A stretch of 59,317 nt of DNA, taken from assembly GCA_043816965.1 (NCBI GenBank), contig JBDRHK010000042.1, positions 1 to 59,317 of the forward strand. Direction: 5' to 3'. Of the stretch, positions 15,317 to 57,290 are shown one piece after another. Made by a program: the position numbers and the translations under genes. This stretch comes from Candidatus Iainarchaeum sp. Lineage in GTDB: Archaea; Iainarchaeota; Iainarchaeia; Iainarchaeales; JAFCCJ01. Under the pieces are notes generated by a model that saw nothing but the letters and a program-made list of their open reading frames with translations, made no database searches and had not been told where the DNA came from. Position 1 is the stretch's first letter; each line of letters begins with the position of its first letter.

Positions 15317-16561
15317 ATGGCTGAGAAAAAAGAAAAGGCAAAGGTTAAAGAGAAGGCAGATGCCAAAGAAAAGGTTACTGTAAAAAAGAAAGCTGCGGCC
15401 AAAGTTAAAGTGGTTTTGGAGGACATAAGGGTTTTTGTGGAGGGAAAGGTCCTGGAAGAGAAGGAACTGCCCACAATTATAACCGGGCAATTTGAGGAAA
15501 TTTCCAAACAGGAAAATCTGAGTGATGGGGACAGGAAGAAATTCCATGAAGGGCTTGTTTCAACTTATAATTCAATCAAGGTTGAGGCAGGGGAAGCTGT
15601 TGGAATAATTGCCGCACAATCACTTGGGGAACCGGGAACTCAGCTTACACTAAGGACAAAGCACTATGCCGGTGCTGCAGAGGTTTCTGTCGGAAGCGGA
15701 ATCCAGAGGGTGGAGGAAATTGTTGATGGAAGGAGCAAGGCAAAGTATCCAACAATGACCATTTACATAGGGGATGAGAAACTTAAAACTGATTTCAAAA
15801 AGGCTGAACTCTTCGCAAAATCACTTATTGACGTTCGGATAGGGGATGTCATAAAGATAAATGAATATCTTTCAGACAAGAGGGTTGTTATCGATCTCCT
15901 GGACGAGGAGATTGAGGAAAGGAATGTTGACCCTGCTCTCCTTGCCGAGAAGATTGAGAAAAACCTGAAAATGAAGGGAACCAAAAAGAAGAATTCCCTT
16001 GAATTCATTTTTAAGAGCGACCCCCTGCTCAAAATAAGAAGGGCGCTGAACAAGGTGAGCGCAACCAGAATCCAGGGAATAAGGGGAATTGAGAAAACCA
16101 TTGTATTTGAGGAAAATGGGGAATTCTTGATAAAAACAAGGGGAACTAACCTCAAAAATGTGTTGAAACTGGAGGAAATTGATGGCACAAGAACCACAAC
16201 CAATGACATTAAGGAAATCAGCAAGGTTTTGGGAATTGAGGCAGGAAGGATTTCAATTGTAAGGGAGCTTAAGAAAGTCCTTGATGACAACAATATCAGG
16301 GTCGATATAAGGCATATCATGCTTCTCGGGGATTTGATGACCTGGGATGGGGAGATTAAGGGCATTGTGAGGACAGGAATCACAAGAGATAAGGCTTCAC
16401 CATTTGCAAGGGCAGCATTTGAGGAAACTGTAAAGCACCTGTTGGATGCCGCATTTGAGGGCCAGAAAGAGGAATTGCAGGGTGTTGTTGAAAATATTAT
16501 TGTCGGCCAGCCGATTAAGGTCGGTACGGGAATTGTGAATCTGGTTATGAAGGGGAAGTGA
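15317..16561 (+). CDS. rpoA2: RNA polymerase subunit A'' with about 33-aa Lys-rich N-terminal extension
   Basis: '[23 protein letters not shown]' trigger-loop region. N-terminus is [32 protein letters not shown]. Confidence 0.95.
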
Positions 16562-21300: not shown

Positions 21301-22200
21301 TTGTTGAGCGGGATGGGGGAGCTGCATCTTGAGGTCACACAATACCGGATCGAGGTTGACCACAAAATACCAATAACTGTTTCCCCGCCAATTGTTGTTT
21401 ACCATGAGGCAATAAACAAGAGCTCACCTACACTTGAATCCAAGAGCCCAAACAGGCACAACAAGCTTAAGATGCGTGTTGAGCCAATTCCTGCTGAAAC
21501 CCTGAACAACCTTATTGAGTCAAGGCTGAATGTGAAAATCAGGCCTAAGGACAAGGATATTGTTGTGAAATTGCAGGAAATCGGGTTTGACAATGAAAGG
21601 GCAAAAAAAATCTGGTGTGTTCACAATAACAATGTGTTAGTTGACGCCACCAGGGGAATACAGGCGCTGCAGGAAATTAAGGAACTGGTTATACAGGGAT
21701 TTAAGGACGCGATGGATGCTGGTCCGCTGGCAAAGGAGAAGAGCGAAGGGATTCAGGTAATTCTCGAGGATGCAACACTCCATGAGGATGCCATCCACAG
21801 GGGTCCTGCACAACTGCTTCCCACAACAACCAGGGGAATTTATGCCTGCATGCTGAGCGCTGACGCCGTCCTGCATGAGCCAAAGCAGACACTTACAATT
21901 AACGTGCCTGAGGACTTCATGGGTTCGGTTTCAAAGGAATTGGGGTCAAGGAGAACACAGATAAGTGAAATGAGGCAGGAGGGAGATACCTCAATAATTA
22001 TAGGAAGGGCTCCTGTAAAGGAATTGATTGGTTTTAGTGCGGCAATTAGGAGCGCAACTCAAGGTAGGGCAATCTGGACCGCGGAATATGCAGGATATGA
22101 ACTCCTGCCAAGGGAATTGCAGGAGAAGGTCATTAAGGAAGTCAGAACCAGAAAGGGGATGGATCCACAGGTCAAACCTGCGGCATTTTTCCTTGAATAG
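18361..22200 (+). CDS. fusA: elongation factor 2 (aEF-2) precursor containing a 549-aa intein
   Basis: 'NIGIVAHIDHGK' ... 'TTLTDNLVAAAG', 'IDTPGHVDF', and diphthamide-site 'HEDAIHRGPAQ'. The exteins sum to 730 aa. Confidence 0.95.
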   Translation: MAKREDIVKLAETLMGNRENIRNIGIVAHIDHGKCVSGKTNIVLANGTTVKAKALFESAETNGRIAGKTGDEVVFDITGQGINAVSFNKQSKDMEFRTISHAWKLKATEPLIKLTLSNGQEISTTPEHKYLCAGDDGTVTEKQAKDVMEKDFILCPRHLPAETLELEQFKTEFLDALSKDPGFIVNLDERNALELKRAILSYGMEKLRKGISSPYKSKSFYHCVYNGRYRLNDFRKIAGILRFNAFEKIAKINYRKTLNQHDHSSVSLNLPKTESGIIELFYLLGLIWGDGGKCGKDIRITNEDRQIIESVKRVCREVLGTKAKERKYAGKATRIDLSAGITFTRILEQFFEFPLKNKSHSITIPKIIRKMPNHFLKAFIQGYFDADGGIEMSRRAASISSASKRMIEDLYSALLRFGCIATIYGKKNTLFVSSSNLKPFSEKVGFRLERKQISLEKILSLSDSPNRNTDLLPIKSILLKQTRKTLGIPLNKFAKTQEAIELGLQNIYLKNFLDYVKTIYSFIGNPKIKNQEAWDELQAIEKIFFNCFTARVEKKGTCIEEFVYDFTVEGNHNFVGNGALIHNTTLTDNLVAAAGLISKELAGKQQFMDYYELEQARGITINSANISLVHKVKGIEYLINIIDTPGHVDFGGEVIRAMRAVDGVMLVVDAVEGVMPQTETVVRQALKEKVKPMLFINTVDRLVNELQVTEKEMQERFVKTIAQVNNLIKKNVPEEFVDEWKVNAMNGSVGFGSAYNNWAVSVPQKEETGIGFKEVYEYCKQEKQKDLAKKSPLHETVIKMIVQHMPNPMVSQKYRIPKIWSGDMESEEGKSMGSCDPNGVFTMMVNDVSVDAHAGDIATGRIYSGTVKKGSKLRLIGSQKEVTIQSVAIYMGPERITVSEISAGNIGALVGTRDIYAGETISEKEIKEFESFFSTAEPVMTISVEAKSTKDLPKLIEVIRQITKEDPNIKASINQETGEHLLSGMGELHLEVTQYRIEVDHKIPITVSPPIVVYHEAINKSSPTLESKSPNRHNKLKMRVEPIPAETLNNLIESRLNVKIRPKDKDIVVKLQEIGFDNERAKKIWCVHNNNVLVDATRGIQALQEIKELVIQGFKDAMDAGPLAKEKSEGIQVILEDATLHEDAIHRGPAQLLPTTTRGIYACMLSADAVLHEPKQTLTINVPEDFMGSVSKELGSRRTQISEMRQEGDTSIIIGRAPVKELIGFSAAIRSATQGRAIWTAEYAGYELLPRELQEKVIKEVRTRKGMDPQVKPAAFFLE
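18463..20109 (+). mobile_element. intein with LAGLIDADG homing-endonuclease domain inserted in the EF-2 P-loop (GK|C...HN|T)
   Basis: Starts with Cys after AHIDHGK and has block B 'TPEHKYL'. DOD motifs are 'LLGLIWGDGG' and 'FIQGYFDADGG'. It ends 'VGNGALIHN' followed by Thr(+1), which restores GKTTLTD. Confidence 0.9.
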
Positions 22201-28602: not shown

Positions 28603-30561
28603 ATGCTCAGAAAATTTTTTGTGCTGGTTTTTGTTTTACTCCTAATTGGTTCTGTTTACGCTGCATGGGTTGTGACAACTAATCCCAGCACTGGAGGAGA
28701 TATTCCTTATGCTATCGCTGTAGATGCAACAGGAGTTTATATTACGGGCAGTGATTCAGCATTAGGTGGGGCTAATTCTCAATGGGCGATTGAAAAAAGA
28801 AGTCTGGATGATGGCAGCCCTCTCTGGAGGGATACAAGTGATTCTGGTTCTGGGTTTGATACAAGTTCTGGAATAGATTCTGATGGAACTAATCTCTATG
28901 TGGTTGGTTGGGCTTATTCAGGAGTTTCAAATTACGAATGGAGGATAGAAAAAAGGGGTGCTAGTACTGGTGATTTAGACACTTTAGCTCCCTGGCCTAT
29001 AACAATAGATCCTGATCCTACAGGCAACCAGGATTCTGCTTATGATGTTGCAATTTACGGTTCAGATATTTATGTTGTAGGAAGTGATTTTTCTACTGAT
29101 GATGAGCAGTGGCGAATTGAAAGAAGGGATGCATTGTCGGGAGCCGAGACATGGGTGCCAATCACCAATAATTTTGGAAATAGGGAAGATATTCCGTTTG
29201 ACATATCTGTTGATTTGAGTGGCGCTTATATAGCTGGCAGGCAATATACTGCCGGGAGGATGCGATGGAGAATTGAGAAGAGGCTTTTGGGGAGTGGGAC
29301 TCTTGATTGGTTCGAGGTTGTCAGTCATAGTGCAAATAATGAGGAAGCTCTTGCAATAACTACTGATGATTCTTATGTTTATACTGCAGGTTTTGACCAG
29401 GATGCAGGGGTTGAACACTGGAGAATTGAGAGAAGGAGAAAAACAGATGGCTTCCTTGAATGGGAGCATTGGGGGGCTGGCCCAGTTCCTACTATTACTG
29501 GGCGTGCAAGGGGTATTGCCGTGGATTCAAGCGGCGTTTATGTTGTGGGTTTTGATTCTTCCTTAGGTTTCCCTGACCATCAATGGAGGGTGGAGAAAAG
29601 GAGATTAGATAATGGGAATCTAATCTGGGGAGAGACCAGTAATCTAATCCCTGGAAATGAGGACGCCGCATATGCTATATCTGTTGACTCTAGCGGAATA
29701 TATGTTGCAGGATATGATTTTATTTGCGGGGAGTCCCAATGGAGAATAGCTAAATGCGATTTCGATGGAACTGGGTGTGATGAGGCAACATTGACAAATG
29801 TTGCCTGCGATGGGGCTTATGTGGGCGAAAGCTGCTCAAATGCGCAGCCTGCAACAATAACCGGCCTTTCTTTAAATGACCCTATTCCAGCAATAACCAT
29901 TGAATATAGTGGTTTCACCAGCAGCCCGCCTGATGAGATATCTATTGATAATTGTGCAAGTTCTGGGCCCGGTACCTACACTCGGGCTGCCGGTCAAATA
30001 GATTGTGTTTCTTCTCCAGGCATTTGTGAGATTTCCTCTTGTTTGATTATCCAGGAAGCTGACTATGAAATAAATATTACGGGGGTAAGAAACTCTACTG
30101 GGGAGAGTTCCTCCTGCCCCCCTGATGAAATTAATGTCCAGCCAGCCGCTATTGTGCCAGGCACAGGGAAAATATTCAAAGTTAGGATTTATGGGGACAC
30201 CACTAACATTGACAATATTGTAAACAAGGAATTTGATGCTTCTGCAACCATGGAAGCTATTGTCGATGCGGGATTTACCGGAAACTGCGCATTTAAGATT
30301 ATGGATATGAAGGGATTAGTTACGTTATTACCCAGCACTGTAGGTGCTTGCGCCGGCACCACTATTGATCGTACCGTGTACGCTGATTGGGGCGCGGGGG
30401 TTTACCTTCTCAAGGTTGAAAATTCAGGGGACCCTTCAATTAACGACGATGTGTTTTTTACTTTAACAGACAGGGCCAAAACCGCAGTTCCTGAAATTCC
30501 TTTCTTTCTTGTTTTAATGGTGCTGATTTCGGTTTTGTTCGTAATCCGCAGATTTAATTAA
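28603..30561 (+). CDS. 652-aa secreted 7-repeat beta-propeller-like protein with Cys-rich linker, Ig-like stalk and PEI-TM-basic C-terminus
   Basis: Signal peptide MLRKFFVLVFVLLLIGSVYA. Seven 'D..G.Y(V/I).G ... W(R/A)IEKR....G...W' repeats. C-terminal 'VPEIPFFLVLMVLISVLFVIRRFN'. Confidence 0.85.
   Translation: MLRKFFVLVFVLLLIGSVYAAWVVTTNPSTGGDIPYAIAVDATGVYITGSDSALGGANSQWAIEKRSLDDGSPLWRDTSDSGSGFDTSSGIDSDGTNLYVVGWAYSGVSNYEWRIEKRGASTGDLDTLAPWPITIDPDPTGNQDSAYDVAIYGSDIYVVGSDFSTDDEQWRIERRDALSGAETWVPITNNFGNREDIPFDISVDLSGAYIAGRQYTAGRMRWRIEKRLLGSGTLDWFEVVSHSANNEEALAITTDDSYVYTAGFDQDAGVEHWRIERRRKTDGFLEWEHWGAGPVPTITGRARGIAVDSSGVYVVGFDSSLGFPDHQWRVEKRRLDNGNLIWGETSNLIPGNEDAAYAISVDSSGIYVAGYDFICGESQWRIAKCDFDGTGCDEATLTNVACDGAYVGESCSNAQPATITGLSLNDPIPAITIEYSGFTSSPPDEISIDNCASSGPGTYTRAAGQIDCVSSPGICEISSCLIIQEADYEINITGVRNSTGESSSCPPDEINVQPAAIVPGTGKIFKVRIYGDTTNIDNIVNKEFDASATMEAIVDAGFTGNCAFKIMDMKGLVTLLPSTVGACAGTTIDRTVYADWGAGVYLLKVENSGDPSINDDVFFTLTDRAKTAVPEIPFFLVLMVLISVLFVIRRFN
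28702..29778 (+). repeat. seven tandem ~52-58-aa protein repeats (propeller blades) with a W-R-I-E-K/R-R core
   Basis: The cores read QWAIEKR, EWRIEKR, QWRIERR, RWRIEKR, HWRIERR, QWRVEKR and QWRIAKC. Each lies about 15 residues after a 'G.Y(V/I).G' strand. Confidence 0.75.
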
Positions 30562-31029: not shown

Positions 31030-33975
31030 ATGGAATTCAAAAAAGTTGAGGAGGGTATTTTTGAAACCCCAAAAACAGGGAAAATGAAAGTTCCGGGGAG
31101 GATTTTCGCATCTGATGGAATTTTCAGGGATATTGAGCAGGGCGCGAAACAGCAATTGCTGAATGTTGCCGAGCTCCCTGGAATTCAGAAGGCTTCATTG
31201 GGAATGCCGGATATGCACTGGGGATATGGCTTCCCTATTGGAGGGGTTGCTGCATTTGATCTGGAGAAGGGAGTGGTTTCCCCTGGCGGAATTGGTTTCG
31301 ATATCAACTGCCTTAAGGGGGATTCCAGGGTTCTCCACGAACTAGGATATACTAAACCAATTGCTGACTTTGAAAAAACCTGGTTTGATGAATCTATTAA
31401 ATGCGTGAACCCAACGAGCAAAGTTATTGATACTGGACTAAATGCCTTTATGGAATTCAAACCTAGAGGCAAGGTTTTTAATGTAAAAACCGAATCAGGA
31501 AAAGAAATTACTGCAACAGAAGAGCATCCTTTTTTTACAAAAAAAGGGATGGTTAAATTGGGTGGATTGAAAGAAGGGCAGGAAGTTTCTGTTTACTCAT
31601 TCGAAGGCGTTGAATTTACCGAACCCTCAAATAAAATTTTAGTGAGTGAAAATGATGTTAGAAAAAAATATCCTGGAAACGAAAACGGCTTAAGGCAGGT
31701 TCTCAGAAAACTTGAAAATATGAAAATAATGCCCTTAAGGGAAAACAACAAAGAGACGCCATATCTGGTAAAATTGCTGGGATTTATTCAGGGTGACGGA
31801 AATTTGGGTTTTTTGAAAAATGGAGCAGGGCAAATGAGTTTTTACGGGGATAAAGAAGATTTAGAGAAAATACGGGAAGACATTGAAAAGATTGGTTTCA
31901 GAGCTTCGCGAGTTTATCAAAGAAGGAGAAAACACTCCATTAGGACACAGTATGATTTGGTTGAATTCGAAAGAACTGAGTTTTCCATTAGAAGTGGTTC
32001 AAGTGCTTTGGCAACTCTCTTGCTTTGTTTAGGTGCCACTGCAGGAAATAAAACTATAGAAAACTGTGGAATCCCTAACTGGCTTTTTAGGGCACCACTA
32101 TGGATTAAACGGCTTTATCTGGCAAGCTTTTTTGGTGCAGAGCTAAGCAGCCCTTCAAGCGTTACCGGCCATGGATTCAATTTTTATGGGCCGGTTCTTT
32201 CGGTTAACAAAAAGAAACCCAATTTGGCCAATGGGCGTAAATTTGTGAAACAGATAAAAAGATTGCTGGAAGACTTTGGCATAAAGAACAATATAATCAA
32301 CGAACGCGATGACTTTGTAAATAAATCAGGGGAAAAATCCATAAGGTTGAGACTCCAGATTTCCTCAGGCCCAAGCAATCTGATTAAGTTTTACGAAAAG
32401 ATTGGCTTTGAATACAATTCCAAAAAACAGTTTCTTGGCCTTTTAGCTGCCCAGTATTCGATAGAGAAACAGGAGATAATCAAAAGTAGAAAAGAGTGTG
32501 AAATTGAATCAATAAAATTACACAAGAAAGGTTTCGGTGCGAAATCAATCTACTCTAAGCTTAAAGATAAGTATCCTTTTTGCAATCTTAGGTTTATTCA
32601 GAGATCAATTTATGAAAACAGGAAGACCGGCCCAAGGATTGCTTATGATTTTTCCAAATTTGAGGAATTTATCGCGCAAAAAACAGAAGGTTTGGGTAAA
32701 ACCGGCCAGGTCTGGGATAAAATAATTTCTAAGGAGGAAGTAATTCTTAATGAGCCAGTGTATGATTTTAATGTTGCGAACAAGCACCATAATTTTATTG
32801 CAAACTGTTTTGTTGTTTCTAATTGCGGAATCAGGCTGGTGAAAACAAATCTTGAGGAAAAGGACATAAGGCCTAAGTTAAAGGAACTGATTGATGTTTT
32901 GTTTAATTTAATTCCTGCGGGCATTGGGGGGAAAGGAAAGATAAGGATTGGTGAAAATGAATTGAAGGAATTGCTTAACAATGGTGCAAAATGGGCTGTT
33001 GAAAATGGCTATGGATGGGAAAAGGATCTGGATTTCATTGAGGAAAATGGCAGGATGGAAAAGGCAGATGCCGAAAAGGTTTCGAAAAAGGCTTTGCAGA
33101 GGGGAATGCCCCAGACAGGCACTCTTGGGAGCGGGAACCATTTTGTTGAGGTCCAGAAAGTTGAGAATGTTTTTGATGAAGGGGTTGCGAAAAAGTTTGG
33201 TTTGAGTGAAGGGCAGATTGTCGTAATGCTGCACTCCGGGAGCAGGGGATGCGGACATCAGATTGCATCAGATTATATTGAGGTAATGCTGCGCGCGATG
33301 AAAAAATATAATATTTCGGTTCCTGACAGGCAGCTTGCATGCGCACCGATAAATTCTTCCGAAGGGCAGGATTATCTGGCGGCAATGTCTGCTGGCGTTA
33401 ATTATGCATTTGCAAACAGGCAGGCAATGATGCACTGGGTGAGGGAGGGCTTTGCAAAGGTTTTTGGGCAGAGTGCCGAATCTTTGGGAATGGATTTGTT
33501 GTATGATATTGCGCACAATGTGGCGAAGTATGAGAAGCATGAAATTGACGGGAAAGGGAAGGAGGTTTTGATTCACAGAAAAGGTGCTACAAGGGCAATG
33601 GCTGCAGGGAGAAAGGAAAACCCCCCTGAGTATTCTGAAACAGGCCATCCTGCGATAATCCCTGGCTCTATGGGAACCGCATCCTATGTTCTTGTGGGAA
33701 CTGAAAAATGTTTGAATGAGAGTTTTGCTTCAGTTTGCCATGGTGCAGGAAGGGTTATGAGCAGGCATGAGGCAATGAGAAGGAAAAGTGGGGAGCAGGT
33801 AAAGAAGGAACTGGAGGCAAAAGGCGAAGTGATTAGGGGGGCATCCTTTGCTGGTTTGGCTGAGGAGATGCCTGAGGCATATAAGGACATTGATGAGGTG
33901 ATTCGTTCAGTTGAAATCTCAGGAATCGGGAAAAAAGTTGCGAAAATGACTCCTTTAGGGGTTATGAAGGGCTGA
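31030..33975 (+). CDS. rtcB: RtcB RNA 3'-phosphate ligase (tRNA-splicing ligase) precursor containing a 505-aa intein
   Basis: 'MPDMHWGYGFPIGGV', 'GGIGFDIN|C', 'GSGNHF', 'HSGSRG.GHQ', 'HNVAK', 'CHGAGR'. The exteins sum to 476 aa. Confidence 0.95.
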   Translation: MEFKKVEEGIFETPKTGKMKVPGRIFASDGIFRDIEQGAKQQLLNVAELPGIQKASLGMPDMHWGYGFPIGGVAAFDLEKGVVSPGGIGFDINCLKGDSRVLHELGYTKPIADFEKTWFDESIKCVNPTSKVIDTGLNAFMEFKPRGKVFNVKTESGKEITATEEHPFFTKKGMVKLGGLKEGQEVSVYSFEGVEFTEPSNKILVSENDVRKKYPGNENGLRQVLRKLENMKIMPLRENNKETPYLVKLLGFIQGDGNLGFLKNGAGQMSFYGDKEDLEKIREDIEKIGFRASRVYQRRRKHSIRTQYDLVEFERTEFSIRSGSSALATLLLCLGATAGNKTIENCGIPNWLFRAPLWIKRLYLASFFGAELSSPSSVTGHGFNFYGPVLSVNKKKPNLANGRKFVKQIKRLLEDFGIKNNIINERDDFVNKSGEKSIRLRLQISSGPSNLIKFYEKIGFEYNSKKQFLGLLAAQYSIEKQEIIKSRKECEIESIKLHKKGFGAKSIYSKLKDKYPFCNLRFIQRSIYENRKTGPRIAYDFSKFEEFIAQKTEGLGKTGQVWDKIISKEEVILNEPVYDFNVANKHHNFIANCFVVSNCGIRLVKTNLEEKDIRPKLKELIDVLFNLIPAGIGGKGKIRIGENELKELLNNGAKWAVENGYGWEKDLDFIEENGRMEKADAEKVSKKALQRGMPQTGTLGSGNHFVEVQKVENVFDEGVAKKFGLSEGQIVVMLHSGSRGCGHQIASDYIEVMLRAMKKYNISVPDRQLACAPINSSEGQDYLAAMSAGVNYAFANRQAMMHWVREGFAKVFGQSAESLGMDLLYDIAHNVAKYEKHEIDGKGKEVLIHRKGATRAMAAGRKENPPEYSETGHPAIIPGSMGTASYVLVGTEKCLNESFASVCHGAGRVMSRHEAMRRKSGEQVKKELEAKGEVIRGASFAGLAEEMPEAYKDIDEVIRSVEISGIGKKVAKMTPLGVMKG
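31309..32823 (+). mobile_element. intein with LAGLIDADG-type endonuclease domain inserted before the catalytic Cys of RtcB (DIN|C...SN|CGIRL)
   Basis: Starts 'CLKGDSRV' and has block B 'TEEHPFF'. DOD-like motifs are 'LLGFIQGDGNL' and 'YLASFFGAELS'. It ends 'NCFVVSN' followed by Cys(+1). Confidence 0.9.
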
Positions 33976-36917: not shown

Positions 36918-38198
36918 ATGACGAAAAAGCATAAGCCACATTCAGGAAGCAAGGCATACTACCCCAGAAAGAGGGCCGCAAAGGAAACACCTAGTTTTAG
37001 CACATTCCCTAATGTTAAGGATAAAGATGCCAGGCCCATGAATTTTCTAGGATATAAGGCGGGAATGGTCCATCTTCTTGCCAAGGATTTGCATGAGAAA
37101 TCCACAAGTTACAATCAGGAGATTATTGTTCCATCCACGGCAATTGAATGCCCCCCAATGAAAGTTTTCGGAATCAGGGCATATGCGAAAACCCCCTATG
37201 GCCTTAAAACAATCGGTGATGTTATTGCCGATAAAACCGATAAAAGCCTGATGAGAAAAATTAATTCCTTTAAGAAGAAATCCAAAAAGAAGGGGAAGAA
37301 AGAGGGAAAGGATTCAAAACAGGGGGAAAAAGAAGAAAAGATTGCTGAGAATGCCGTTAAGAAATTTTCTATTTCTGATTTGGAAAATAAAAAGGAATCC
37401 ATTTATGAGTTAAAGCTGCTTGTCCACACACAGCCAGGGCTTACAGGAATTGGGAAGAAAAGGCCTGATTTGATTGAACTTGCCCTTAGCGGCAGTTTTG
37501 ATTCGCAACTGGAGTTTGCAAAACAGAAACTGGGAAATGAGATAAGGGTTTCCGAGATTTTTGAGAGGGCTAATTTTGTTGATGTAAGGGCCGTTGATAA
37601 GGGAAAAGGTTTTCAGGGAGTTATAAAAAGGTTTGGCGTAAAGATGCAGAGGCCAAAGGCAAAAAAGAGAAGGATTGTTGGAAGCATTGGCCCATGGAAC
37701 CCCTCAACTGTAATGTGGCAAGTTGCAAGGGCAGGGCAAATGGGTTATCAGTCAAGGACCGAGTACAACAAAAGGGTTGTTGAAATCGGGGAGGATGCTT
37801 CTAATGTTAACCCTTCCGGAGGATTTAAGAATTATGGCGAAATAAAGAATGAGTTTATTCTGCTTGCAGGTTCTGTTCCAGGGCCGGTTAAAAGGGCAAT
37901 TGCACTGAGGATTCCCATAAGGCCTGAGCCACACGAAAGGTTCCATTTGGGGGAAATCAGCTATTATTCCTCTTCTCAGAAAGGAAAGAAGAAAGAAGTT
38001 AAGGGAGAGGTTAAAGGGGAAAAAGCCCATGAAAAAAAGGAAGATAAAAAACATGAGGCTAAAAAGGGCGATAAGAAAGAAGTGAAGAAGGAAGCGCCTA
38101 AAACGGAAGCAAAGGAAGAAGTGAAAAAGGAAGGCAAGAAAGAAAAGGCGGAGAAAGTCGAAAAGGGCGATAAGAAGGCGGAGAAGAAAAAGAAGTGA
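36918..38198 (+). CDS. rpl3: ribosomal protein uL3 with Lys-rich internal insertion and about 70-aa K/E-rich C-terminal tail
   Basis: 'HKPHSGSKAYYPRKRA', 'FLGYKAGM', 'GKGFQGVIKRFG', 'GPWNPS'. The tail is KGKKKEVKGEVKGEK...KKAEKKKK. Confidence 0.93.
   Translation: MTKKHKPHSGSKAYYPRKRAAKETPSFSTFPNVKDKDARPMNFLGYKAGMVHLLAKDLHEKSTSYNQEIIVPSTAIECPPMKVFGIRAYAKTPYGLKTIGDVIADKTDKSLMRKINSFKKKSKKKGKKEGKDSKQGEKEEKIAENAVKKFSISDLENKKESIYELKLLVHTQPGLTGIGKKRPDLIELALSGSFDSQLEFAKQKLGNEIRVSEIFERANFVDVRAVDKGKGFQGVIKRFGVKMQRPKAKKRRIVGSIGPWNPSTVMWQVARAGQMGYQSRTEYNKRVVEIGEDASNVNPSGGFKNYGEIKNEFILLAGSVPGPVKRAIALRIPIRPEPHERFHLGEISYYSSSQKGKKKEVKGEVKGEKAHEKKEDKKHEAKKGDKKEVKKEAPKTEAKEEVKKEGKKEKAEKVEKGDKKAEKKKK
38097..38157 (+). 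repeat. 61-nt segment near-identical (2 mismatches) to 41888..41948 in rps3
   Basis: cctaaaacGgaagcaaaggaagaagtgaaaaaggaaggcaagaaagaaaaggCggagaaag compared with the rps3 copy. There is a 43-nt exact core. Confidence 0.9.
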
Positions 38199-38999: not shown

Positions 39000-39479
39000 A
39001 TGGTTATTATGGCTGATAAGAAAGTGGAAAAAGGAAATAAGGCCAGGAAGGCGGAGAAGGGCGGCGCCAAAAAGATTAAGAAACCTGAAGTTAAAAAGGA
39101 AAAAAGAAGGGATGCCGTAAAGAAGAAGATTGGGGAAGTAAAGAAGGTTGAGAAGAAAGGGCAGCAAGCGAGTGAAGTGAAGGTTGAAAAGCCTGCAGCT
39201 GTTAGCAAGGAGCAGCAGTTGAAGGGCTTGGAGATTATAAAGTACCCGCTTATTACAGAGAAGGCAGTGAATATGATTGAGACCGAAAATAAGATGGTTT
39301 TTATTGTTGCGAAATCCGCCAACAAACAGATGGTTAAGGAAGCTGTTGAGTCCCTTTACGGCATAAAGGTGGATAGCGTGAATATTATGAAGGATACTAA
39401 ATCCCGGAAAAAGGCATTGGTCAAGATTAACACTAAGTTCAAGGCCGAGGATTTGGCGACTAAACTGGGGGTACTCTAA
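39000..39479 (+). CDS. rpl23: ribosomal protein uL23 with about 70-aa K-rich N-terminal extension
   Basis: C-terminal 85 aa 'IIKYPLITEKAVNMIE..NKMVFIV...ANK..VKEAVE.LY..KV..VN' is canonical L23. Confidence 0.92.
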   Translation: MVIMADKKVEKGNKARKAEKGGAKKIKKPEVKKEKRRDAVKKKIGEVKKVEKKGQQASEVKVEKPAAVSKEQQLKGLEIIKYPLITEKAVNMIETENKMVFIVAKSANKQMVKEAVESLYGIKVDSVNIMKDTKSRKKALVKINTKFKAEDLATKLGVL

Positions 39480-41096: not shown

Positions 41097-42061
41097 TGAT
41101 TGAAAGAACCTTCATCCATCAGGGAATCAAGAGGATTGAGCTGGAAGAATATCTGAGAGGGGAGCTGGAGAAGGCAGGGTTCACAAAATCATCTGTTGTG
41201 AAGACCCCGATGGTTACAAGAATTGTGGTTAATGTTACAAGGCCTGGCTTGGCAATTGGCAAGAGCGGCCAGAACATAAGGCATCTTACTGAAACTATTG
41301 AAAAAAGGTTTGGCATTGACAATCCGCAACTGGAAATTAAGGAAATAACTTCCCCTGAGCTTGATGCGGCAGCTGTCGCAAATAAGATGAAGGCACTTAT
41401 TGAAAGGGGCTTCTCATGGAGAAGTGTTACCTACAGGACTTTGAGAGATGTTGTGAATGCAAATGCCCAGGGAGTTGAAATATTGCTTTCCGGAAAACTC
41501 GCGGGAAAGGGCGGCAGGAAAAGAAAGCAAAGGGTCTCACAGGGATATATGAAAAAGGTGGGGGACCAGGTAAAGCTTGTTGATTTCGCCAAGAAGACGG
41601 CCTATCCAAAAGCAGGCGCAATTGGAATTAAGGTTAGAATTGTTAGGCCAGGGACAGTGTTCCCGGATAAGGTTGATATTGCAGATTACTTCAAGAAGGA
41701 CAAGGCTGAAGAAAAGACTGAAGTAGCCGAAGTGAAGAAGGAAGTTAGCAAAGAAGTTAAAGGGAAAAAGGCTCCTGCAAAGATTGAAGAAAAGGCAGGG
41801 GTAAAAAAAGAAGATGTGAGAAAGGAAAAGGCTCCTGAGAAGAAAGGTGAGAAAGTAGAGAAGAAAGCCGCTGAAAAGAAGACTGAGCCTAAAACAGAAG
41901 CAAAGGAAGAAGTGAAAAAGGAAGGCAAGAAAGAAAAGGTGGAGAAAGGGGAAAAGAAAAAATCTGGAGAAACAGAATCCGGAAAAGAAAGCAAAAAAAC
42001 CGAGAAGAAGAACGATGTAAAGAAGGACGAGAAGAAGGGCAGCGAAAAGAAGGTTAAATGA
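41096..42061 (+). CDS. rps3: ribosomal protein uS3 with about 120-aa K/E-rich C-terminal tail
   Basis: KH domain 'PGLAIGKSGQNIRHLTE' and 'GKLAGKGGRKRK'. The tail runs from 'KKDKAEEKTE' to the end. Confidence 0.95.
   Translation: MIERTFIHQGIKRIELEEYLRGELEKAGFTKSSVVKTPMVTRIVVNVTRPGLAIGKSGQNIRHLTETIEKRFGIDNPQLEIKEITSPELDAAAVANKMKALIERGFSWRSVTYRTLRDVVNANAQGVEILLSGKLAGKGGRKRKQRVSQGYMKKVGDQVKLVDFAKKTAYPKAGAIGIKVRIVRPGTVFPDKVDIADYFKKDKAEEKTEVAEVKKEVSKEVKGKKAPAKIEEKAGVKKEDVRKEKAPEKKGEKVEKKAAEKKTEPKTEAKEEVKKEGKKEKVEKGEKKKSGETESGKESKKTEKKNDVKKDEKKGSEKKVK
41888..41948 (+). repeat. second copy of the 61-nt K/E-tail segment shared with rpl3
   Basis: Both copies encode PKTEAKEEVKKEGKKEK(A/V)EK. Confidence 0.9.
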
Positions 42062-42071
42062 GGTCTTGATT

Positions 42072-42338
42072 ATGTCATCTAAGAAAGTGGTTTCGGAACT
42101 GAGGGAAAGCGGTGTTGAAGAGCTTGAGGACATGCTTTTAGGGCTGAAGACCAGCCTTGCAAAGGAAAAGGCATTGGTAGCTTCAGGAACAAGGCCTGAA
42201 AAGCCGGCAACCATAAGGGGCCTAAGAAGGAAGATTGCGAGAATTATTACAATTGCCGGCGAAAAGAAAAAAGGCGCGGTAGATGGGAAGAAAGCCGCAA
42301 AAGTTAAGCCTGCAAAAACCAAAGGAGAGGAAAAATAG
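42072..42338 (+). CDS. rpl29: ribosomal protein uL29 (K-rich C-terminal tail)
   Basis: ATG at 42072 (MSSKK). 'LRESGVEELEDMLLGLKTSL' fits the L29 pattern. Confidence 0.88.
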   Translation: MSSKKVVSELRESGVEELEDMLLGLKTSLAKEKALVASGTRPEKPATIRGLRRKIARIITIAGEKKKGAVDGKKAAKVKPAKTKGEEK

Positions 42339-43646: not shown

Positions 43647-44126
43647 ATGGTGAAAAGCAAGAAACCAAAAAAGCAGAGAAAGGCCCATTACAATGCCAAG
43701 CTCCATGTGAAACGAAAACAATTTTCGGCACATCTGAGTACGGAGTTGAGAAAGGCATTGGGAAAAAGGTCTTTACCTGTAAGAACAGGAGATAAGGTTA
43801 AGGTTATGAGAGGAAAGAACAAAAAATTCTCCGGAAAAATCTTAAGGCTGAACAGGGCTAAGAACCAGGTTTTTATAGAGAAACTCAACAGAAAGAAATC
43901 CGATGGGACTGAAATTCTGATTCCGATAAGGCCCTCAAATTTGATGCTTGTTGAACTGGACAGAAGCGATGAAAAGAGAATGAAAGTAAAAATCCCTGAG
44001 TTAAAGGCCAAGAAAGAAGAAACTAAGGCTGAAAAGGCAAAAGGGACTAGTGAAGAGAAACCGAAAAATGTTGAGAAAGATAAAAAACAGGCGAAGAAAA
44101 AGGAAGTGGTGAAAAGTGGCAAATAG
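43647..44126 (+). CDS. rpl24: ribosomal protein uL24 with K/E-rich C-terminal tail
   Basis: ATG at 43647 after taggtgagaaa. 'KQRKAHYNAKLH', KOW 'GDKVKVMRGKNKKFSGKI'. Confidence 0.92.
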   Translation: MVKSKKPKKQRKAHYNAKLHVKRKQFSAHLSTELRKALGKRSLPVRTGDKVKVMRGKNKKFSGKILRLNRAKNQVFIEKLNRKKSDGTEILIPIRPSNLMLVELDRSDEKRMKVKIPELKAKKEETKAEKAKGTSEEKPKNVEKDKKQAKKKEVVKSGK

Positions 44127-45955: not shown

Positions 45956-46507
45956 ATGAATAAACCAAGTGAATTGAGAGTTGAGATTCCGGAAGATGTC
46001 CAGATAGAGATTAGTGGCAAAAAGCTTACTGTAAGCTTCCAGGGAAAGCAACTTTCAAGGGAATTCAAGTCCAATGTTATAGATTTTGCTAATGAGGGGA
46101 ATGTCCTTGTGCTTAAATCAAAGAACAGCAGGAGGAAAACCTCTGCAACCATGAATTCCATGGCTTCCCATGTAAGAAATATGGTTAGGGGCATTAAGCA
46201 TGGTTTTCAATACACCTTGGAAGCTGTATATTCCCACTTTCCTATGAATTTGACCGTTAAGAATGGTTTTGTGGAAATAAACAACCTTGCAGGCGCAAAA
46301 GCACCGCGAAGATCGAATATTGTGGGAAACACAAGTGTTGAGATTAAGGGAAACAGCATAGTGGTTAAGGGAATCGGCAAGGAAGATACAGGGCAAACAG
46401 CCGCAAACCTTGAAACAGCCACAAAGATTAGGGGAAAAGATTCGAGAATATTTCAGGACGGAATTTATATTGTTACAAAACCTACCAAGGGCCCAGGTGA
46501 GGAATAA
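45956..46507 (+). CDS. rpl6: ribosomal protein uL6
   Basis: Archaeal L6 pattern and synteny. Confidence 0.92.
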   Translation: MNKPSELRVEIPEDVQIEISGKKLTVSFQGKQLSREFKSNVIDFANEGNVLVLKSKNSRRKTSATMNSMASHVRNMVRGIKHGFQYTLEAVYSHFPMNLTVKNGFVEINNLAGAKAPRRSNIVGNTSVEIKGNSIVVKGIGKEDTGQTAANLETATKIRGKDSRIFQDGIYIVTKPTKGPGEE

Positions 46508-47097
46508 TGGCTAAGGATAAGAAACAGAGCACAGGAAAGAAAGCGCCTGTGAAGGCCATAAAAAAGGCAAATAAGGGAGTGAAGCAAAAGCCTAAGGGAA
46601 AGAAGGCTGAAAATCTTGCTGATAAGGCTGTTAAAAAGGAAATTAAAACAGAAAATAAAGAGATTAAAAAATCCGGGAAAGAGGCTTTGGCAAAAGAGAA
46701 ACCAGCCAAGAAAACTGGCGGGGAAAAAAGCAAGGATATTTTGAAGCTTCAGAGCATGATCAAGAAAAAGGTCTCTGTAAATTTCAAAGGAAGGTTTGGC
46801 CAGAGGCATACGAGAAAGAACAGGGCAAAGTGGAAAAAGTGGAGGAAGTCACGCGGAATAGACATCCAAAGGCAGCAGGAAGACGGCAAAATTCCCAGCA
46901 CAGGATATGGGGCGAGAAAAGAGATTAGGGGAATCCACCCAAGCGGCTTTAAAGAGGTTTATGTGAGAACGATTAATGACCTTTCAGGGATTAACGGCGC
47001 TTCTGCGGCAAGGCTGCAGTCAACATTGGGCGCAAGGAAAAGAAAGGAAATTATTGCAGAAGCAAGAAAGAGAAATATTAAGGTGCTTAATCGATAG
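46507..47097 (+). CDS. rpl32e: ribosomal protein eL32 with about 75-aa K-rich N-terminal extension
   Basis: Core 'W.KWRK.RG.D...........P..GYG..K..RG.HPSGF.EV.V'. Confidence 0.9.
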   Translation: MAKDKKQSTGKKAPVKAIKKANKGVKQKPKGKKAENLADKAVKKEIKTENKEIKKSGKEALAKEKPAKKTGGEKSKDILKLQSMIKKKVSVNFKGRFGQRHTRKNRAKWKKWRKSRGIDIQRQQEDGKIPSTGYGARKEIRGIHPSGFKEVYVRTINDLSGINGASAARLQSTLGARKRKEIIAEARKRNIKVLNR

Positions 47098-49235: not shown

Positions 49236-49691
49236 ATGGTTGAAAGGAAAAGAAAAAAGAAAAATCGCCTTTTAGGCAACAGAAGCCATGGTGCAGGCAA
49301 CACCAAAAACAGGAGAGGCGCCGGGTGCAGAGGCGGAAGGGGAAGAGCCGGAAGCCATAAGCACAAGTTCAACACACTCCACGCTACCTTTGGAATAAAG
49401 AGGAAGCTAAAGAAACAGGAGACCTTGAGGGCGGTAAACCTTGAGGAATTGGGAAAGGAAATTGAAAAACTTTCCGATGACAAGAAGATTGAAAAGAAAG
49501 GTGATTTGTTTATTGTTGACGGGAAGATTCTTAAAATCGGGAAAATTTTGGGACGGGGCAATATTTCACAAAAGATAATGGTGAAAAATTTGGCCGTTAG
49601 CAAATCCGCCGAGGATAAAATTGTTGACGCAGGCGGAGAAGTGGAGAAAGAAACAATTGAAGAAGAAACTAAGGAAGAGGACAAAGAATGA
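49236..49691 (+). CDS. rpl15: ribosomal protein uL15
   Basis: 'RGAGCRGGRGRAGSHKHK'. Confidence 0.92.
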   Translation: MVERKRKKKNRLLGNRSHGAGNTKNRRGAGCRGGRGRAGSHKHKFNTLHATFGIKRKLKKQETLRAVNLEELGKEIEKLSDDKKIEKKGDLFIVDGKILKIGKILGRGNISQKIMVKNLAVSKSAEDKIVDAGGEVEKETIEEETKEEDKE

Positions 49692-52307: not shown

Positions 52308-52902
52308 TGAAGAAAAGAAATCAGGAAAAGAAATCAGGTATATTGTGAGGATTGCAAACAAGGATCTTAACGGGAACCTTCCCATATGCCAGGCAATCAT
52401 CGGGCTAAGGGGCATAGGCCATAGGACAGGGAGGATAATTGCCGCGGCATTCGAAGACAAGTCAGGGATAAAATACAACATAAAACTCGGAGATATTCCT
52501 GAGGAAAAGGACAAAGAATTGGAGGATATTGTGATTAACCCGCAAAATTACGGGATTCCATCATGGACTTTCAATAAGCAGAAAGAATATGAGTCTGGAG
52601 AGAATATCCATTTGGTTATGGGGGATCTTGAATTCTCCCTGAGAAAGGATTTGCAGAGGCTTAAGGAGATAAAATCATACAGGGGTTTCAGGCATACCTG
52701 GGGCCTGCCTTTGAGAGGCCAGAAAACCAAAAGCACCCATAGGGGCAAGGGCGGAACTGTCGGGGTTATCAAGAAGGACGCCAAGGGCGGGAAATCTGCG
52801 GCTTCCGGAGCCGCAGGGGTCAAAGCTGGCGGCAGCGCCAAAACTGGCGATAGTGGCAAGGCTGGCGGCGGTGCCAAAACTGGGGGAAATAAGAAAAAAT
52901 AG
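52300..52902 (+). CDS. rps13: ribosomal protein uS13 with Gly/Ala/Lys-rich C-terminal tail
   Basis: 'IVRIANKDLNG', 'YRGFRH.WGLPLRGQKTKST'. The tail is GGKSAASGAAGVKAGGSAKTGDSGKAGGGAKTGGNKKK. Confidence 0.93.
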   Translation: MSDEEKKSGKEIRYIVRIANKDLNGNLPICQAIIGLRGIGHRTGRIIAAAFEDKSGIKYNIKLGDIPEEKDKELEDIVINPQNYGIPSWTFNKQKEYESGENIHLVMGDLEFSLRKDLQRLKEIKSYRGFRHTWGLPLRGQKTKSTHRGKGGTVGVIKKDAKGGKSAASGAAGVKAGGSAKTGDSGKAGGGAKTGGNKKK

Positions 52903-52912
52903 GTGAACTAAA

Positions 52913-53650
52913 ATGGGCGATACAAGGAAAACCAAAAAACATTATGCTTCCCCTAAAAAAAGGTGGGATAAAACCAGAATAGAGTCTGAAAAGAGCGTTA
53001 TAGAAATCTATGGCCTGAAAAACAAGAGAGAATTGAGGAGAATTGAAACAATCCTCAGGGCGAAAAGGGATAATGGAAGAAAACTTCTTGCCTTTGATGC
53101 TGAGGAGAGGCAAAAAAGAGAGAATGAGCTTATGCAGAGCCTTAACAGGATCGGCATATTTAAGGGCCCTGCTTCATTAGATGATGTCCTCAGCCTGAAT
53201 GTGCAGGAGTTTCTGGAGAGGAGATTGCAAACCATTGTTTGGAGGAAAAACCTCGCAAAAACAATCAAGCAGGCAAGGCAGTTTATTGTCCACGGGCATA
53301 TCGCAATCAATGGAAAGAAGCTTGACTGCCCAAGTTATTTAGTGCCAATTGATGAGGAAAGCAAGATTGCCTATTTCAAACGGCCTATCGAGATGGAACC
53401 TGAAAAGGCCGAGGATAAAAAAGAGGAACTTAAAAAGAAATTCGGGGAAATGAAGAAAGAGAAAAATATGGAAGAGATTTTTGAGGAAGAAAGGGGAAAA
53501 CAAGTTGAGGAAAAGAAGGGAGAAAAAGTTGAAGAGAAAAAGGAATTCAAAGTGGAAGTAAAAGAAACTAAGGCTGATGAGCCAGAAGTGGAAAAATCTG
53601 AAAAGGATTCCAAGGAAGAAAAGAAAGATGATATTATGGAGGGGAAATGA
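52913..53650 (+). CDS. rps4: ribosomal protein uS4 with about 80-aa K/E-rich C-terminal tail
   Basis: '[12 protein letters not shown]', 'LERRLQTIV', '[16 protein letters not shown]'. Confidence 0.93.
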
Positions 53651-55787: not shown

Positions 55788-56357
55788 ATGAGTGAGGAAG
55801 AGAAAGTAGAGGTTAAAGTGGAAGAAAAGAAGGCAGAGGTAAAATTAGAGGAGAAGGCAGAGGTAACGCAAGTAGAGAAGAAAGTTGAGAATACGGTAGA
55901 AGAAATGCCTGTAGAGAAGAAGATAGAGGAAAAAAAGGCCAAGAAGAAGAAATCAAGGAAGAAAGGGATTACGACAAAGGCCAAGAAGAAGAGGGCTGTT
56001 GCAAGGGCAGTAATAAAAAGGGGCAATGGTGCTATTAGAATAAACCGCAGAAAACTTGATGTTGTCAGCCCGCGCTATGTGAGGGAGCTCATTCAGGAGC
56101 CTATGACTCTGGCAGGGGACCTCGCAAATGAGGTTGATATTTCCGTCAATGTGAGGGGCGGGGGATTTATGGGCCAGGCAGTTGCCGCAAGGGGCGCAAT
56201 AGCAAAGGCCCTTCTTGAGTTCAAGAGTGATGAGAAACTCAGGGAAAAGTTTATCGCATATGACAGGCTATTGCTTGTCGATGATGTCAGGAGGGTTGAA
56301 CCCAAAAAACCTCTTGGTCCAAAAGCCAGGAAAAAGAAGCAGCAGAGTAAAAGGTAA
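55788..56357 (+). CDS. rps9: ribosomal protein uS9 with about 55-aa E/K-rich N-terminal extension
   Basis: Core '[16 protein letters not shown]', 'V.GGG..GQA.A.R.AIAKAL', 'D.R..E.KK.G..KARKK.Q.SKR'. Confidence 0.93.
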
Positions 56358-56570: not shown

Positions 56571-57290
56571 ATGAAAATGGCAGAAAAAACATTGATTGAC
56601 GTTGAGAGCTACCTCAAAACCGGCTCCCACATAGGCACTAAATTTAAGTCAGGGGAGATGAGGAGATATATCCTTAAGGTGAGAAAGGATGGCTTGAATG
56701 TCTTGGATATCCAAAAGATTGATGAAAGGATAAAACTTGCTGCCAAGTTCATTGCACGCTATGCGCCTGAGGACCTGGTCGTGGTTTCAAGGAAACTCTA
56801 TGGGCAGACCCCTGCGAAAGAATTTGCAAATGCCATAGGTGCCAAAGAAATGGTCGGGAGGTTTATTCCCGGCACATTTACAAATCCCGCGGCAAAAAAG
56901 TTTGTTGAGCCAAAAGTCCTGCTTGTGACTGAGGCAGAGCCTGACTCACAGGCCATTACAGAGGCCAAAAAAATAGGGGTTCCGGTAATCGCACTGAGCA
57001 GCACAAACAATTCACTGAAAAATATTGATTTCATTATTCCTGTGAACAATAAGGGAAGGAAAAGCCTTGCCCTTGTTTACTGGCTTCTTGCAAGAGAGTA
57101 TTTGAAGGAGAAGGGGGAAATAAAATCCGATGAGGGCTTTACCAAATCCCTGGAAGATTTTGAATACAAGATGAAAGAGGGGGAAAGGGACTCCACAATT
57201 GAGGAAAGGCCCAGGCGCTTCCAGGACAGAAGGGATGATAGAAGGGGCGACAGGCAAGATGATAGAAGGGGCGGCAGAGGGAGAAGGTAA
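56571..57290 (+). CDS. rps2: ribosomal protein uS2 with Arg/Asp/Gly-rich C-terminal tail
   Basis: 'LKTGSHIGT', 'DP..D.QAI.EA..IGVPVIAL..TN'. The tail is RPRRFQDRRDDRRGDRQDDRRGGRGRR. Confidence 0.93.
   Translation: MKMAEKTLIDVESYLKTGSHIGTKFKSGEMRRYILKVRKDGLNVLDIQKIDERIKLAAKFIARYAPEDLVVVSRKLYGQTPAKEFANAIGAKEMVGRFIPGTFTNPAAKKFVEPKVLLVTEAEPDSQAITEAKKIGVPVIALSSTNNSLKNIDFIIPVNNKGRKSLALVYWLLAREYLKEKGEIKSDEGFTKSLEDFEYKMKEGERDSTIEERPRRFQDRRDDRRGDRQDDRRGGRGRR

Follow-up and report, generated by a model that had tools for sequence, protein, structure and literature searches.

In the genome of a tiny, uncultured archaeon of the order Iainarchaeales, about 22 ribosomal proteins, roughly one third of the set, carry charged terminal tails. 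The best overall explanation is that these tails are genuine, translated, disordered extensions forming a functional coat, and we consider this explanation probable as a whole. Its structural and evolutionary part is held with good confidence, while its functional part, a charged and flexible coat, is put forward tentatively. Read from the predicted proteins, the tails gather on components of RNA and DNA machines: besides these ribosomal proteins, they occur on topoisomerase I and on the A'' and E subunits of RNA polymerase.

Extent of the tails in the window, the genome and the lineage

The window, that is the whole stretch of DNA analysed (59,317 nucleotides), is one contig of a 1.34 Mb assembly (109 contigs, 86% complete) from a member of the Iainarchaeales. 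This order belongs to the Iainarchaeota (Diapherotrites), a lineage of DPANN whose genomes measure 0.5–1.5 Mb. Between 36.9 and 57.3 kb it holds a long archaeal ribosomal-protein gene cluster, with RNA polymerase and elongation-factor genes upstream. Tail limits were set by comparing open reading frame lengths with Pfam core limits and, for seven proteins, also with the chains of solved archaeal ribosomes; those of uS13, uS2, uL29, uL15 and RpoA'' come from Pfam alone. A PDB search for uS13 with a cut-off of 1e-32 yielded no chain, an effect of the cut-off chosen. When genome contigs were searched with a uL2 alignment, the best 80 loci were all from Iainarchaeota, and baselines for other archaea were therefore taken from solved structures and sister orders. 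A first-pass annotation of the window had listed twelve extended proteins, and each extension was found at its place when the open reading frames were set against Pfam cores and solved chains. The features are as follows.

15317–15421 (+): RpoA'' N-terminal K/A/V/E-rich tail, about 35 aa (Pfam limit, composition, upstream Shine-Dalgarno-like motif)
15329–15374 (+): RpoA'' tail, 18-nt in-frame tandem repeat
37242–37376 (+): uL3 internal K-rich loop, residues 109–153 (composition; length varies among relatives)
37953–38195 (+): uL3 C-terminal K/E tail, 81 aa, net charge +12 (Pfam core, solved chain, relatives)
38059–38133 (+): uL3 tail, 39-nt tandem repeat
38096–38157 (+): 62-nt module in the uL3 tail, 96.8% identical to 41887–41948 in the uS3 tail
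39000–39212 (+): uL23 N-terminal K-rich tail, about 68–71 aa, net charge +15 (start probably 39009)
41696–42058 (+): uS3 C-terminal K/E tail, 121 aa, net charge +14 (Pfam core, solved chains, relatives, AlphaFold)
41887–41948 (+): 62-nt module in the uS3 tail, common to the uL3 tail
42270–42335 (+): uL29 C-terminal K/A/G tail, 22 aa, net charge +5 (Pfam core, composition, relatives)
43989–44123 (+): uL24 C-terminal K/E tail, 45 aa, net charge +8 (Pfam core, solved chains, relatives)
46507–46731 (+): eL32 N-terminal K-rich tail, about 75 aa, net charge +21 over residues 1–87 (Pfam core, solved chains)
49647–49688 (+): uL15 short acidic C-terminal tail, 14 aa, net charge −5 (Pfam limit, composition, relatives)
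52750–52899 (+): uS13 C-terminal G/A/K-rich tail, 50 aa, net charge +9 (Pfam core, 18-nt tandem repeat)
53408–53647 (+): uS4 C-terminal E/K tail, 80 aa, net charge −6 (Pfam core, solved chains)
55788–55970 (+): uS9 N-terminal E/K/V tail, 61 aa, net charge +2 (Pfam core, solved chains, start motif)
57171–57287 (+): uS2 C-terminal R/D/G-rich tail, 39 aa (Pfam limit, 24-nt tandem repeat)

The longest tail, that of uS3, had been placed at 41690–42058 with about 120 aa and corresponds to residues 201–321, K/E-rich, following a core (residues 1–200) that terminates in FPDKV at about 41692. The whole protein thus measures 321 aa, compared with 209–229 aa in solved archaeal chains. The same comparison gave 159 aa for uL23 (156 from 39009, core from about residue 72–78) against 81–86, 196 aa for eL32 (core from about residue 76) against 123–130, 245 aa for uS4 against 166–181, 189 aa for uS9 against 132–142, 159 aa for uL24 against 119–128, and 426 aa for uL3 against 346 in the solved archaeal chain. 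The full lengths of uS13, uS2 and RpoA'' are 200, 239 and 414 aa, the Pfam domain of the last beginning at residue 56. Two of the announced tails, those of uL15 and uL29, are present but short or weak here (14 aa, acidic, and 22 aa), and the internal insertion reported for uL3 exists as a K-rich segment but is a variable loop, from 0 to about 45 aa long across relatives. In the K/E tails the fraction of K is 0.29–0.40 and that of E 0.08–0.31, and aromatic residues are absent or nearly so; the uS13 tail has 0.32 G, and the uS2 tail 0.36 R and 0.18 D. As terminal extensions, the tails attach at the termini of conserved ribosomal-protein cores (Pfam, solved chains), and as disordered low-complexity extensions they combine biased composition with predicted disorder.

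We then looked at the rest of the genome. With a crude whole-genome gene call, 61 of 1548 open reading frames contained a 30-residue window with at least 50% K+E. About ten more Pfam-identified ribosomal proteins with K/E tails were found outside the window, at the N-terminus of uS15 and at the C-termini of eL43, eL31, eL39, eS19, eS6, uL16, uL1, uL11 (net charge −15 in this genome), eS8 and uL10. Non-ribosomal frames with a terminal K/E segment, identified by Pfam in the same genome-wide check, were RpoE, topoisomerase I, a LeuA-like enzyme, AlaRS and FtsY. Ribosomal proteins account for 18 of the 37 frames bearing such a terminal segment, an enrichment of about 30-fold (Fisher odds ratio about 28–38, p about 1e-16 to 1e-18, the total of ribosomal proteins being assumed as 55–68 among 1548 frames rather than counted). 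Summed over the tail tables, the ribosomal-protein tails amount to about 1,250 further residues for each ribosome, and their net charges to roughly +125.

The first-pass annotation took the tails for a lineage trait and not a one-off event. This stands, since they recur across operons and genomes of the Iainarchaeales. Its wording that the trait is lineage-wide holds for uS3 and uS4 and mostly for eL32 and uL23, but the tails of uL3, uL24, uL29 and uS9 are patchy. A uS3 tail of at least 73 aa and a uS4 tail of at least 29 aa occur in all 19–20 operons of the order, and an eL32 tail in 18 of 20. In a broader set of Iainarchaeota genomes, which are related and so do not count as independent samples, 99% of 67 had a uS3 tail of 30 aa or more (median 92 aa) and 81% of 78 a uL23 tail of that length; the cores of the uS3-tailed genomes are only 40–60% identical. 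At the same threshold, tails occur on uL4 in 29%, uL3 in 26%, uL24 in 25% and uL29 in 6% of about 62–78 Iainarchaeota genomes, and across the phylum (148 genomes) the uS3 open frames measure 230–596 aa. Across 20 operons the tailed proteins vary widely in length (uL23 88–203, eL32 115–264, uS3 273–363, uS4 190–286 and uS9 135–204 aa), whereas tailless neighbours in the same operons vary little (SUI1 99–104, uL30 142–164 and eL19 144–156 aa). The solved archaeal chains are shorter, and the lengths in one sister order are canonical (uL23 83–84, eL32 111–114, uS3 221–238, uS4 173–186, uS9 135–139). In a concatenated-core tree the window fell in a clade of seven (98% SH-aLRT), all with uL3, uL23, uS3, eL32 and uS4 tails. 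Outside this clade the tails come and go, as in two genomes nested among tail-bearers that are without uL23 tails.

The sign of the net charge was kept for several proteins across the 20 operons: those of eL32 are basic throughout (+11 to +29), uL15 tails always acidic (−2 to −13), and uL24, uL29 and uS13 tails basic. Those of uS4 are near neutral to acidic and those of uS3 mixed, so that these two proteins show no single charge sign across relatives.

Growth and divergence of the tails

Divergence was measured against a same-genus genome at 83–88% DNA identity. Protein identity to this genome was 0.61–0.79 in tails and 0.83–0.96 in cores, and dN was higher in the tails (compare 0.10–0.29 with 0.02–0.10). 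The dN/dS ratio was 0.2–0.5 in tails against 0.06–0.16 in cores, values that are rough on low-complexity alignments, and dS was saturated for the uS3 tail. All tail indels in this comparison were in frame. In alignments of 20 orthologues there were no conserved tail columns, whereas the cores were well conserved. The tails are thus fast-evolving, lineage-specific and length-variable, yet to all appearances translated.

Between 15000 and 57400 we found 15 tandem repeats. Eight of them fall in tails, each with a period that is a multiple of 3 (18, 39, 12, 15, 18, 24, 24 and 24 nt). Coding-strand purine content reaches 75–83% in most tails (67% in that of uS13) against 58–66% in cores. The 62-nt module common to the uL3 and uS3 tails has two copies genome-wide and no others; we considered it as a mobile dispersed repeat and rejected this because of the low copy number. 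The same-genus relative also possesses the uL3/uS3 pair. In a 60-nt comparison, the two copies of one genome agree at 85% and those of the other at 95%, but copies from different genomes agree at only 60–73%, and this greater closeness within than between genomes argues for continuing gene conversion or repeated copying. As far as genome comparison can tell, these data show that the tails grow via in-frame tandem repeats of purine-rich (AAG/GAA) DNA and by copying between genes, that the module is a case of concerted evolution between the unrelated uL3 and uS3 genes, and that tail sequence drifts 3–6 times faster than core sequence.

Such a mode of growth could be non-adaptive, with low-complexity sequence produced by slippage and ectopic copying, tolerated in small-population DPANN and devoid of any function of its own. 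This is the main rival to a functional coat. The in-frame repeats and the shared module are what one would see of a mutational engine at work, tail sequence is conserved nowhere, dN/dS lies 2–6-fold above that of the cores, and the wide lengths (88–203 aa for uL23, 115–264 aa for eL32), the patchy presence and the gains and losses on the tree all fit. Several observations nevertheless make it unlikely as the full account. Ribosomal proteins are generally among the most abundant proteins of the cell, so that about 1,250 extra residues per ribosome should be costly, and these genomes are reduced (0.5–1.5 Mb). The uS3 tail has been kept in 99% of genomes in spite of a core identity of 40–60%, dN/dS remains below 1, and the charge sign is kept for eL32, uL15, uL24 and uS13. 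Finally, the roughly 30-fold enrichment in ribosomal proteins differs from a proteome-wide spread. Since the reading frame, the K/E/A/G composition and some charge signs are kept across the order, we favour weak purifying selection acting on bulk properties of the tails and not on their sequence.

Predicted conformation, reading frames and rRNA

The tails had been likened to ER/K-type single alpha-helices, which would make them rigid spacers or arms. Their high K+E content invites this comparison, and the uS9 N-tail, the best case, runs for 40 residues without Pro or Gly, with a charged fraction of 0.61. In no tail, however, did we find 28 consecutive residues that are free of Pro and Gly and at least 75% charged. 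Pro or Gly recurs every 10–16 residues in most tails, and E-to-K (i+4) pairs number 0.00–0.07 per residue. We also ran AlphaFold2 with 20-sequence alignments, in which the cores were confident. Residues 219–321 of uS3 (pLDDT about 30) and residues 1–59 of eL32 (pLDDT below 50) were predicted with almost no secondary structure. Helices were drawn at uS3 195–221, with pLDDT dropping from 72 to 54, and, at low confidence, at eL32 39–56; the confident helix at eL32 76–89 is the beginning of canonical eL32, as in the solved chains. The single-helix model is thus very improbable for these tails, which fail the sequence tests and are predicted to be disordered.

A second likeness, to histone-H1 tails, is apt only in part. 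It suits the basic tails of eL32, uL23 and eL39, but most tails contain 15–30% Glu and little Ala or Pro. In the H1-type test, which looks for abundant Lys, Ala and Pro, few acidic residues and a strongly positive net charge, K was 0.3–0.46 throughout, Glu 0.13–0.31 in most tails, and Ala 0.03–0.18 and Pro 0.00–0.05 in the ribosomal-protein tails; the nearest to an H1-type composition were the eL32, uL23, eL39 and eS8 tails and that of the LeuA-like enzyme. These compositions and models characterise the tails best as polyampholyte or polycationic regions predicted to be disordered.

Another possibility is that the tails are artefacts of annotation and that the true starts or stops leave them out. 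Two genes lend themselves to it: the public uS9 call begins at an internal ATG (55905), giving 150 aa and omitting 39 tail residues, and for uL23 the start may lie at 39000 or at 39009, the latter being the public call. Several observations speak for the inclusion of the tails. The sole stop codon available to the C-terminal tails lies at the tail end, abutting or overlapping the next gene. A GGTGA-type motif stands about 8–12 nt before the start of most cluster genes; it precedes the long-form starts of eL32 (46507), uS9 (55788) and RpoA'' (15317; here GGTGG, 9–10 nt upstream, Shine-Dalgarno-like), and none was found before the core-nearest in-frame alternative starts of these three genes. 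Public gene calls include the tails of uS3, uL3, eL32, uS4 and uS13 and give the same 414 aa for RpoA''. In a related uS9 (83% identical, 192 aa) the N-tail is in frame with single-codon indels and the internal ATG is missing, which favours the long form. The frames stay open, with in-frame indels, in up to 78 genomes, and the genes are so tightly packed that shorter forms would open coding-like gaps of 120–220 nt. Lysine codon choice is also alike in tails and cores (AAG 0.54 and 0.52). Altogether, the starts preceded by Shine-Dalgarno motifs, the in-frame indels and the dN/dS values point to translated tails under weak selection, and the chance that the tails are artefacts is minimal.

It had also been suggested that the tails compensate for reduced rRNA. 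In mitochondrial or microsporidian ribosomes extra protein makes up for lost rRNA segments, and what speaks for the idea here is this analogy, with a small genome and a DPANN lifestyle. It is most improbable: in four relatives, from which the sizes are taken as the source assembly is without rRNA, the 16S (1484–1495 nt) and 23S (2970–3061 nt) are full-length and cover the archaeal Rfam models from end to end, whether the genome is tail-rich (G017, G016) or tail-poor (G003), and the tails are predicted to be disordered. Separately, a role of the tails as tethered polyamine substitutes was considered and rejected. In five genomes no pyruvoyl arginine decarboxylase family member was found and spermidine synthase was above the cut-off in G016 only. 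Tail-rich and tail-poor genomes are alike in this respect and give no discriminating signal.

Comparison with known systems and a possible charged coat

Low-complexity tails on ribosomal proteins are known as a kind, and the habit at this scale looks undescribed; in a literature search of incomplete coverage we found no description of systematic ribosomal-protein tails in DPANN or Iainarchaeota. A survey of low-complexity regions in 102 archaeal proteomes (UniProt, one per genus) names archaeal uS3 among the proteins that bear them in 10 or more genera, and takes lysine-rich regions to bind nucleic acids (Ntountoumi et al. 2019, PMC6821194). Both data sets contain A/E/K-rich stretches on ribosomal proteins, but the surveyed regions are mostly single, about 36 aa long and on S3, S24, L10 and L12, compared with about 22 proteins in a single genome and 14–121 aa here. 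In genome-reduced Mycoplasma pneumoniae, according to excerpts of Xue et al. 2022 (PMC9534751), 11 of 52 ribosomal proteins have extensions of more than 20 aa, mostly C-terminal and mostly predicted disordered, whose disruption alters fitness. The likeness lies in genome reduction and disordered terminal extensions. The differences are that the mycoplasma is a bacterium, that other proteins are extended and that three of its extensions fold and are resolved in the map; an origin by tandem repeats or gene conversion is not described in those excerpts. A study of snoRNP proteins (PMC11528048) likewise describes abundant lysine-rich disordered domains on ribosome-related proteins for which electrostatics matter, but these are eukaryotic nucleolar assembly factors and we claim no homology with the tails of the window. 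According to a 2026 preprint whose scope does not extend to archaea, the ribosomes of bacteria, eukaryotes and mitochondria bear a flexible coat of protein. Two other reports were examined and set aside: the NLS-type motifs of archaeal uL3 and uL15 (bioRxiv 10.1101/671966), short and conserved at the N-terminus, bear no relation to the tails, and the insertions in universal proteins of DPANN (bioRxiv 10.64898/2026.06.17.729505) are inserts in uS5, uS7 and uL16, not tails.

Two individual proteins have extended counterparts elsewhere. The eL32 chains of Haloarcula marismortui (240–241 aa, core about 103–231) are extended by about 100 aa at the N-terminus, the end that bears the tail in the window too. 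The window tail is strongly basic, whereas haloarchaeal extensions are in general acidic, a salt adaptation. Eukaryotic uL23 (L23a/L25) also has a Lys-rich N-terminal extension ahead of its core, for a total of about 150–156 aa, and the window uL23 aligns with eukaryotic chains over almost its whole length (phmmer). Since the Pfam model of the eukaryotic uL23 N-terminal domain did not match the window uL23 at E up to 0.01, and since the tail is missing from sister orders and some relatives, this likeness is probably compositional and convergent.

If the tails do form a charged, disordered coat, they would project as polyelectrolytes from termini that we take, from archaeal ribosome structures, to be solvent-exposed. 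The basic tails (eL32, uL23, uL24, uL29, eL31, eL39, eS8, eS19 and uS3) may then touch RNA or other anionic surfaces through fuzzy electrostatic contacts, and tails without a positive net charge or close to neutral (uS4, uS9, uS15, uL15 and uL11) may serve as bristles for solubility or spacing. A bolder version, which we regard as rather doubtful, is that the tails are a required coat, charged, disordered and position-specific, carried by ribosomes, RNA polymerase and topoisomerase in nanosized DPANN archaea. Such a coat would organise the ribosomes of a tiny cell, for instance by tethering them to RNA or membrane, by spacing them or by helping their assembly. Ribosomal proteins would here have been enlarged convergently, in a 'eukaryote-like' way, through tandem duplication and gene conversion. 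The basic tails of eL32, uL23, uL24, uL29, eL31 and eL39, most of which ring the nascent-chain exit, would contrast with the acidic tail of uL11 at the stalk base.

At a practical level, the tails inflate and misalign ribosomal-protein markers used for DPANN phylogeny, and they mislead start-codon calling, the public uS9 call being probably 39 residues short. The uL3/uS3 module offers a clean natural case of concerted evolution between unrelated genes. For the organism, the expense of about 1,250 residues per ribosome on fast-evolving tails in a genome-reduced lineage poses a puzzle of cost versus benefit. If the tails are functional, a disordered surface coat would be a tunable feature of archaeal ribosomes too, beyond the eukaryotic and organellar ones.

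Start of uS9 and resemblance of uL23 to eukaryotic proteins

Two of the N-terminal tails call for closer description:

55788-55905, + strand, disputed N-terminal segment of uS9 (public gene call versus long form)
39000-39212, + strand, N-terminal tail of uL23 (phmmer, Pfam)

The public gene call starts uS9 at the internal ATG at 55905, giving a protein of 150 aa. Since a Shine-Dalgarno motif accompanies the long-form start at 55788 and the internal ATG is missing in a relative, the sequence leads us to favour the 189-aa form over the 150-aa one; the deposited annotation is probably 39 residues too short. As for uL23, phmmer aligned full-length eukaryotic uL23 (L23a/L25, about 150-156 aa) with both the N-terminal tail and the core of the window protein, and the Pfam model of the eukaryotic N-terminal domain gave no match to it at E values up to 0.01. 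The resemblance to L23a/L25 is probably compositional.

Unusual tails and rRNA genes in the source assembly

Two proteins encoded on other contigs of the same assembly carry unusual tails:

contig C17, 1892-3520, LeuA/homocitrate-synthase-like enzyme with a K/P/A-rich end
contig C76, 5788-6429, uL11 with an acidic tail

The K/P/A-rich tail occupies the last 37 aa of the metabolic enzyme (lysine fraction 0.46, net charge +16), and this most histone-H1-like tail of the genome is found on an enzyme that does not bind nucleic acid. The 69-aa tail of uL11, a protein located at the ribosomal stalk base, is strongly acidic (net charge -15), in contrast to the basic tails elsewhere. The whole assembly, which is 86% complete, yielded neither a 16S nor a 23S rRNA gene; four relatives have both at full length, in one copy each.

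Inteins and a weak RIP-family match in the window

18361-22197, + strand, elongation factor 2 gene with intein (Pfam)
31030-33972, + strand, RtcB (tRNA ligase) gene with intein (Pfam)
28603-30558, + strand, 652-aa ORF with sub-threshold Pfam RIP match

The length of elongation factor 2, 1279 aa, is due to an intein that interrupts its GTPase domain and contains a LAGLIDADG endonuclease domain (Intein_splicing match, residues 44-583). RtcB, of 981 aa, carries an intein as well (Intein_splicing match, residues 109-598). The 652-aa ORF partially matches the RIP (ribosome-inactivating protein) family over only 45 residues; with an E value of 4.8e-4 and a score of 20.2 bits the match stays below the cut-off of 21, and it may well be chance.

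A solved ribosome with long uS3 and uS4

An archaeal-type ribosome structure (PDB 9o17, 9znf, 9zng, 9zni) contains a uS3 chain of 318 aa, with which the window uS3 aligns through residue 274, and a uS4 of 218 aa. These entries may offer a structural view of long tails on uS3 and uS4.
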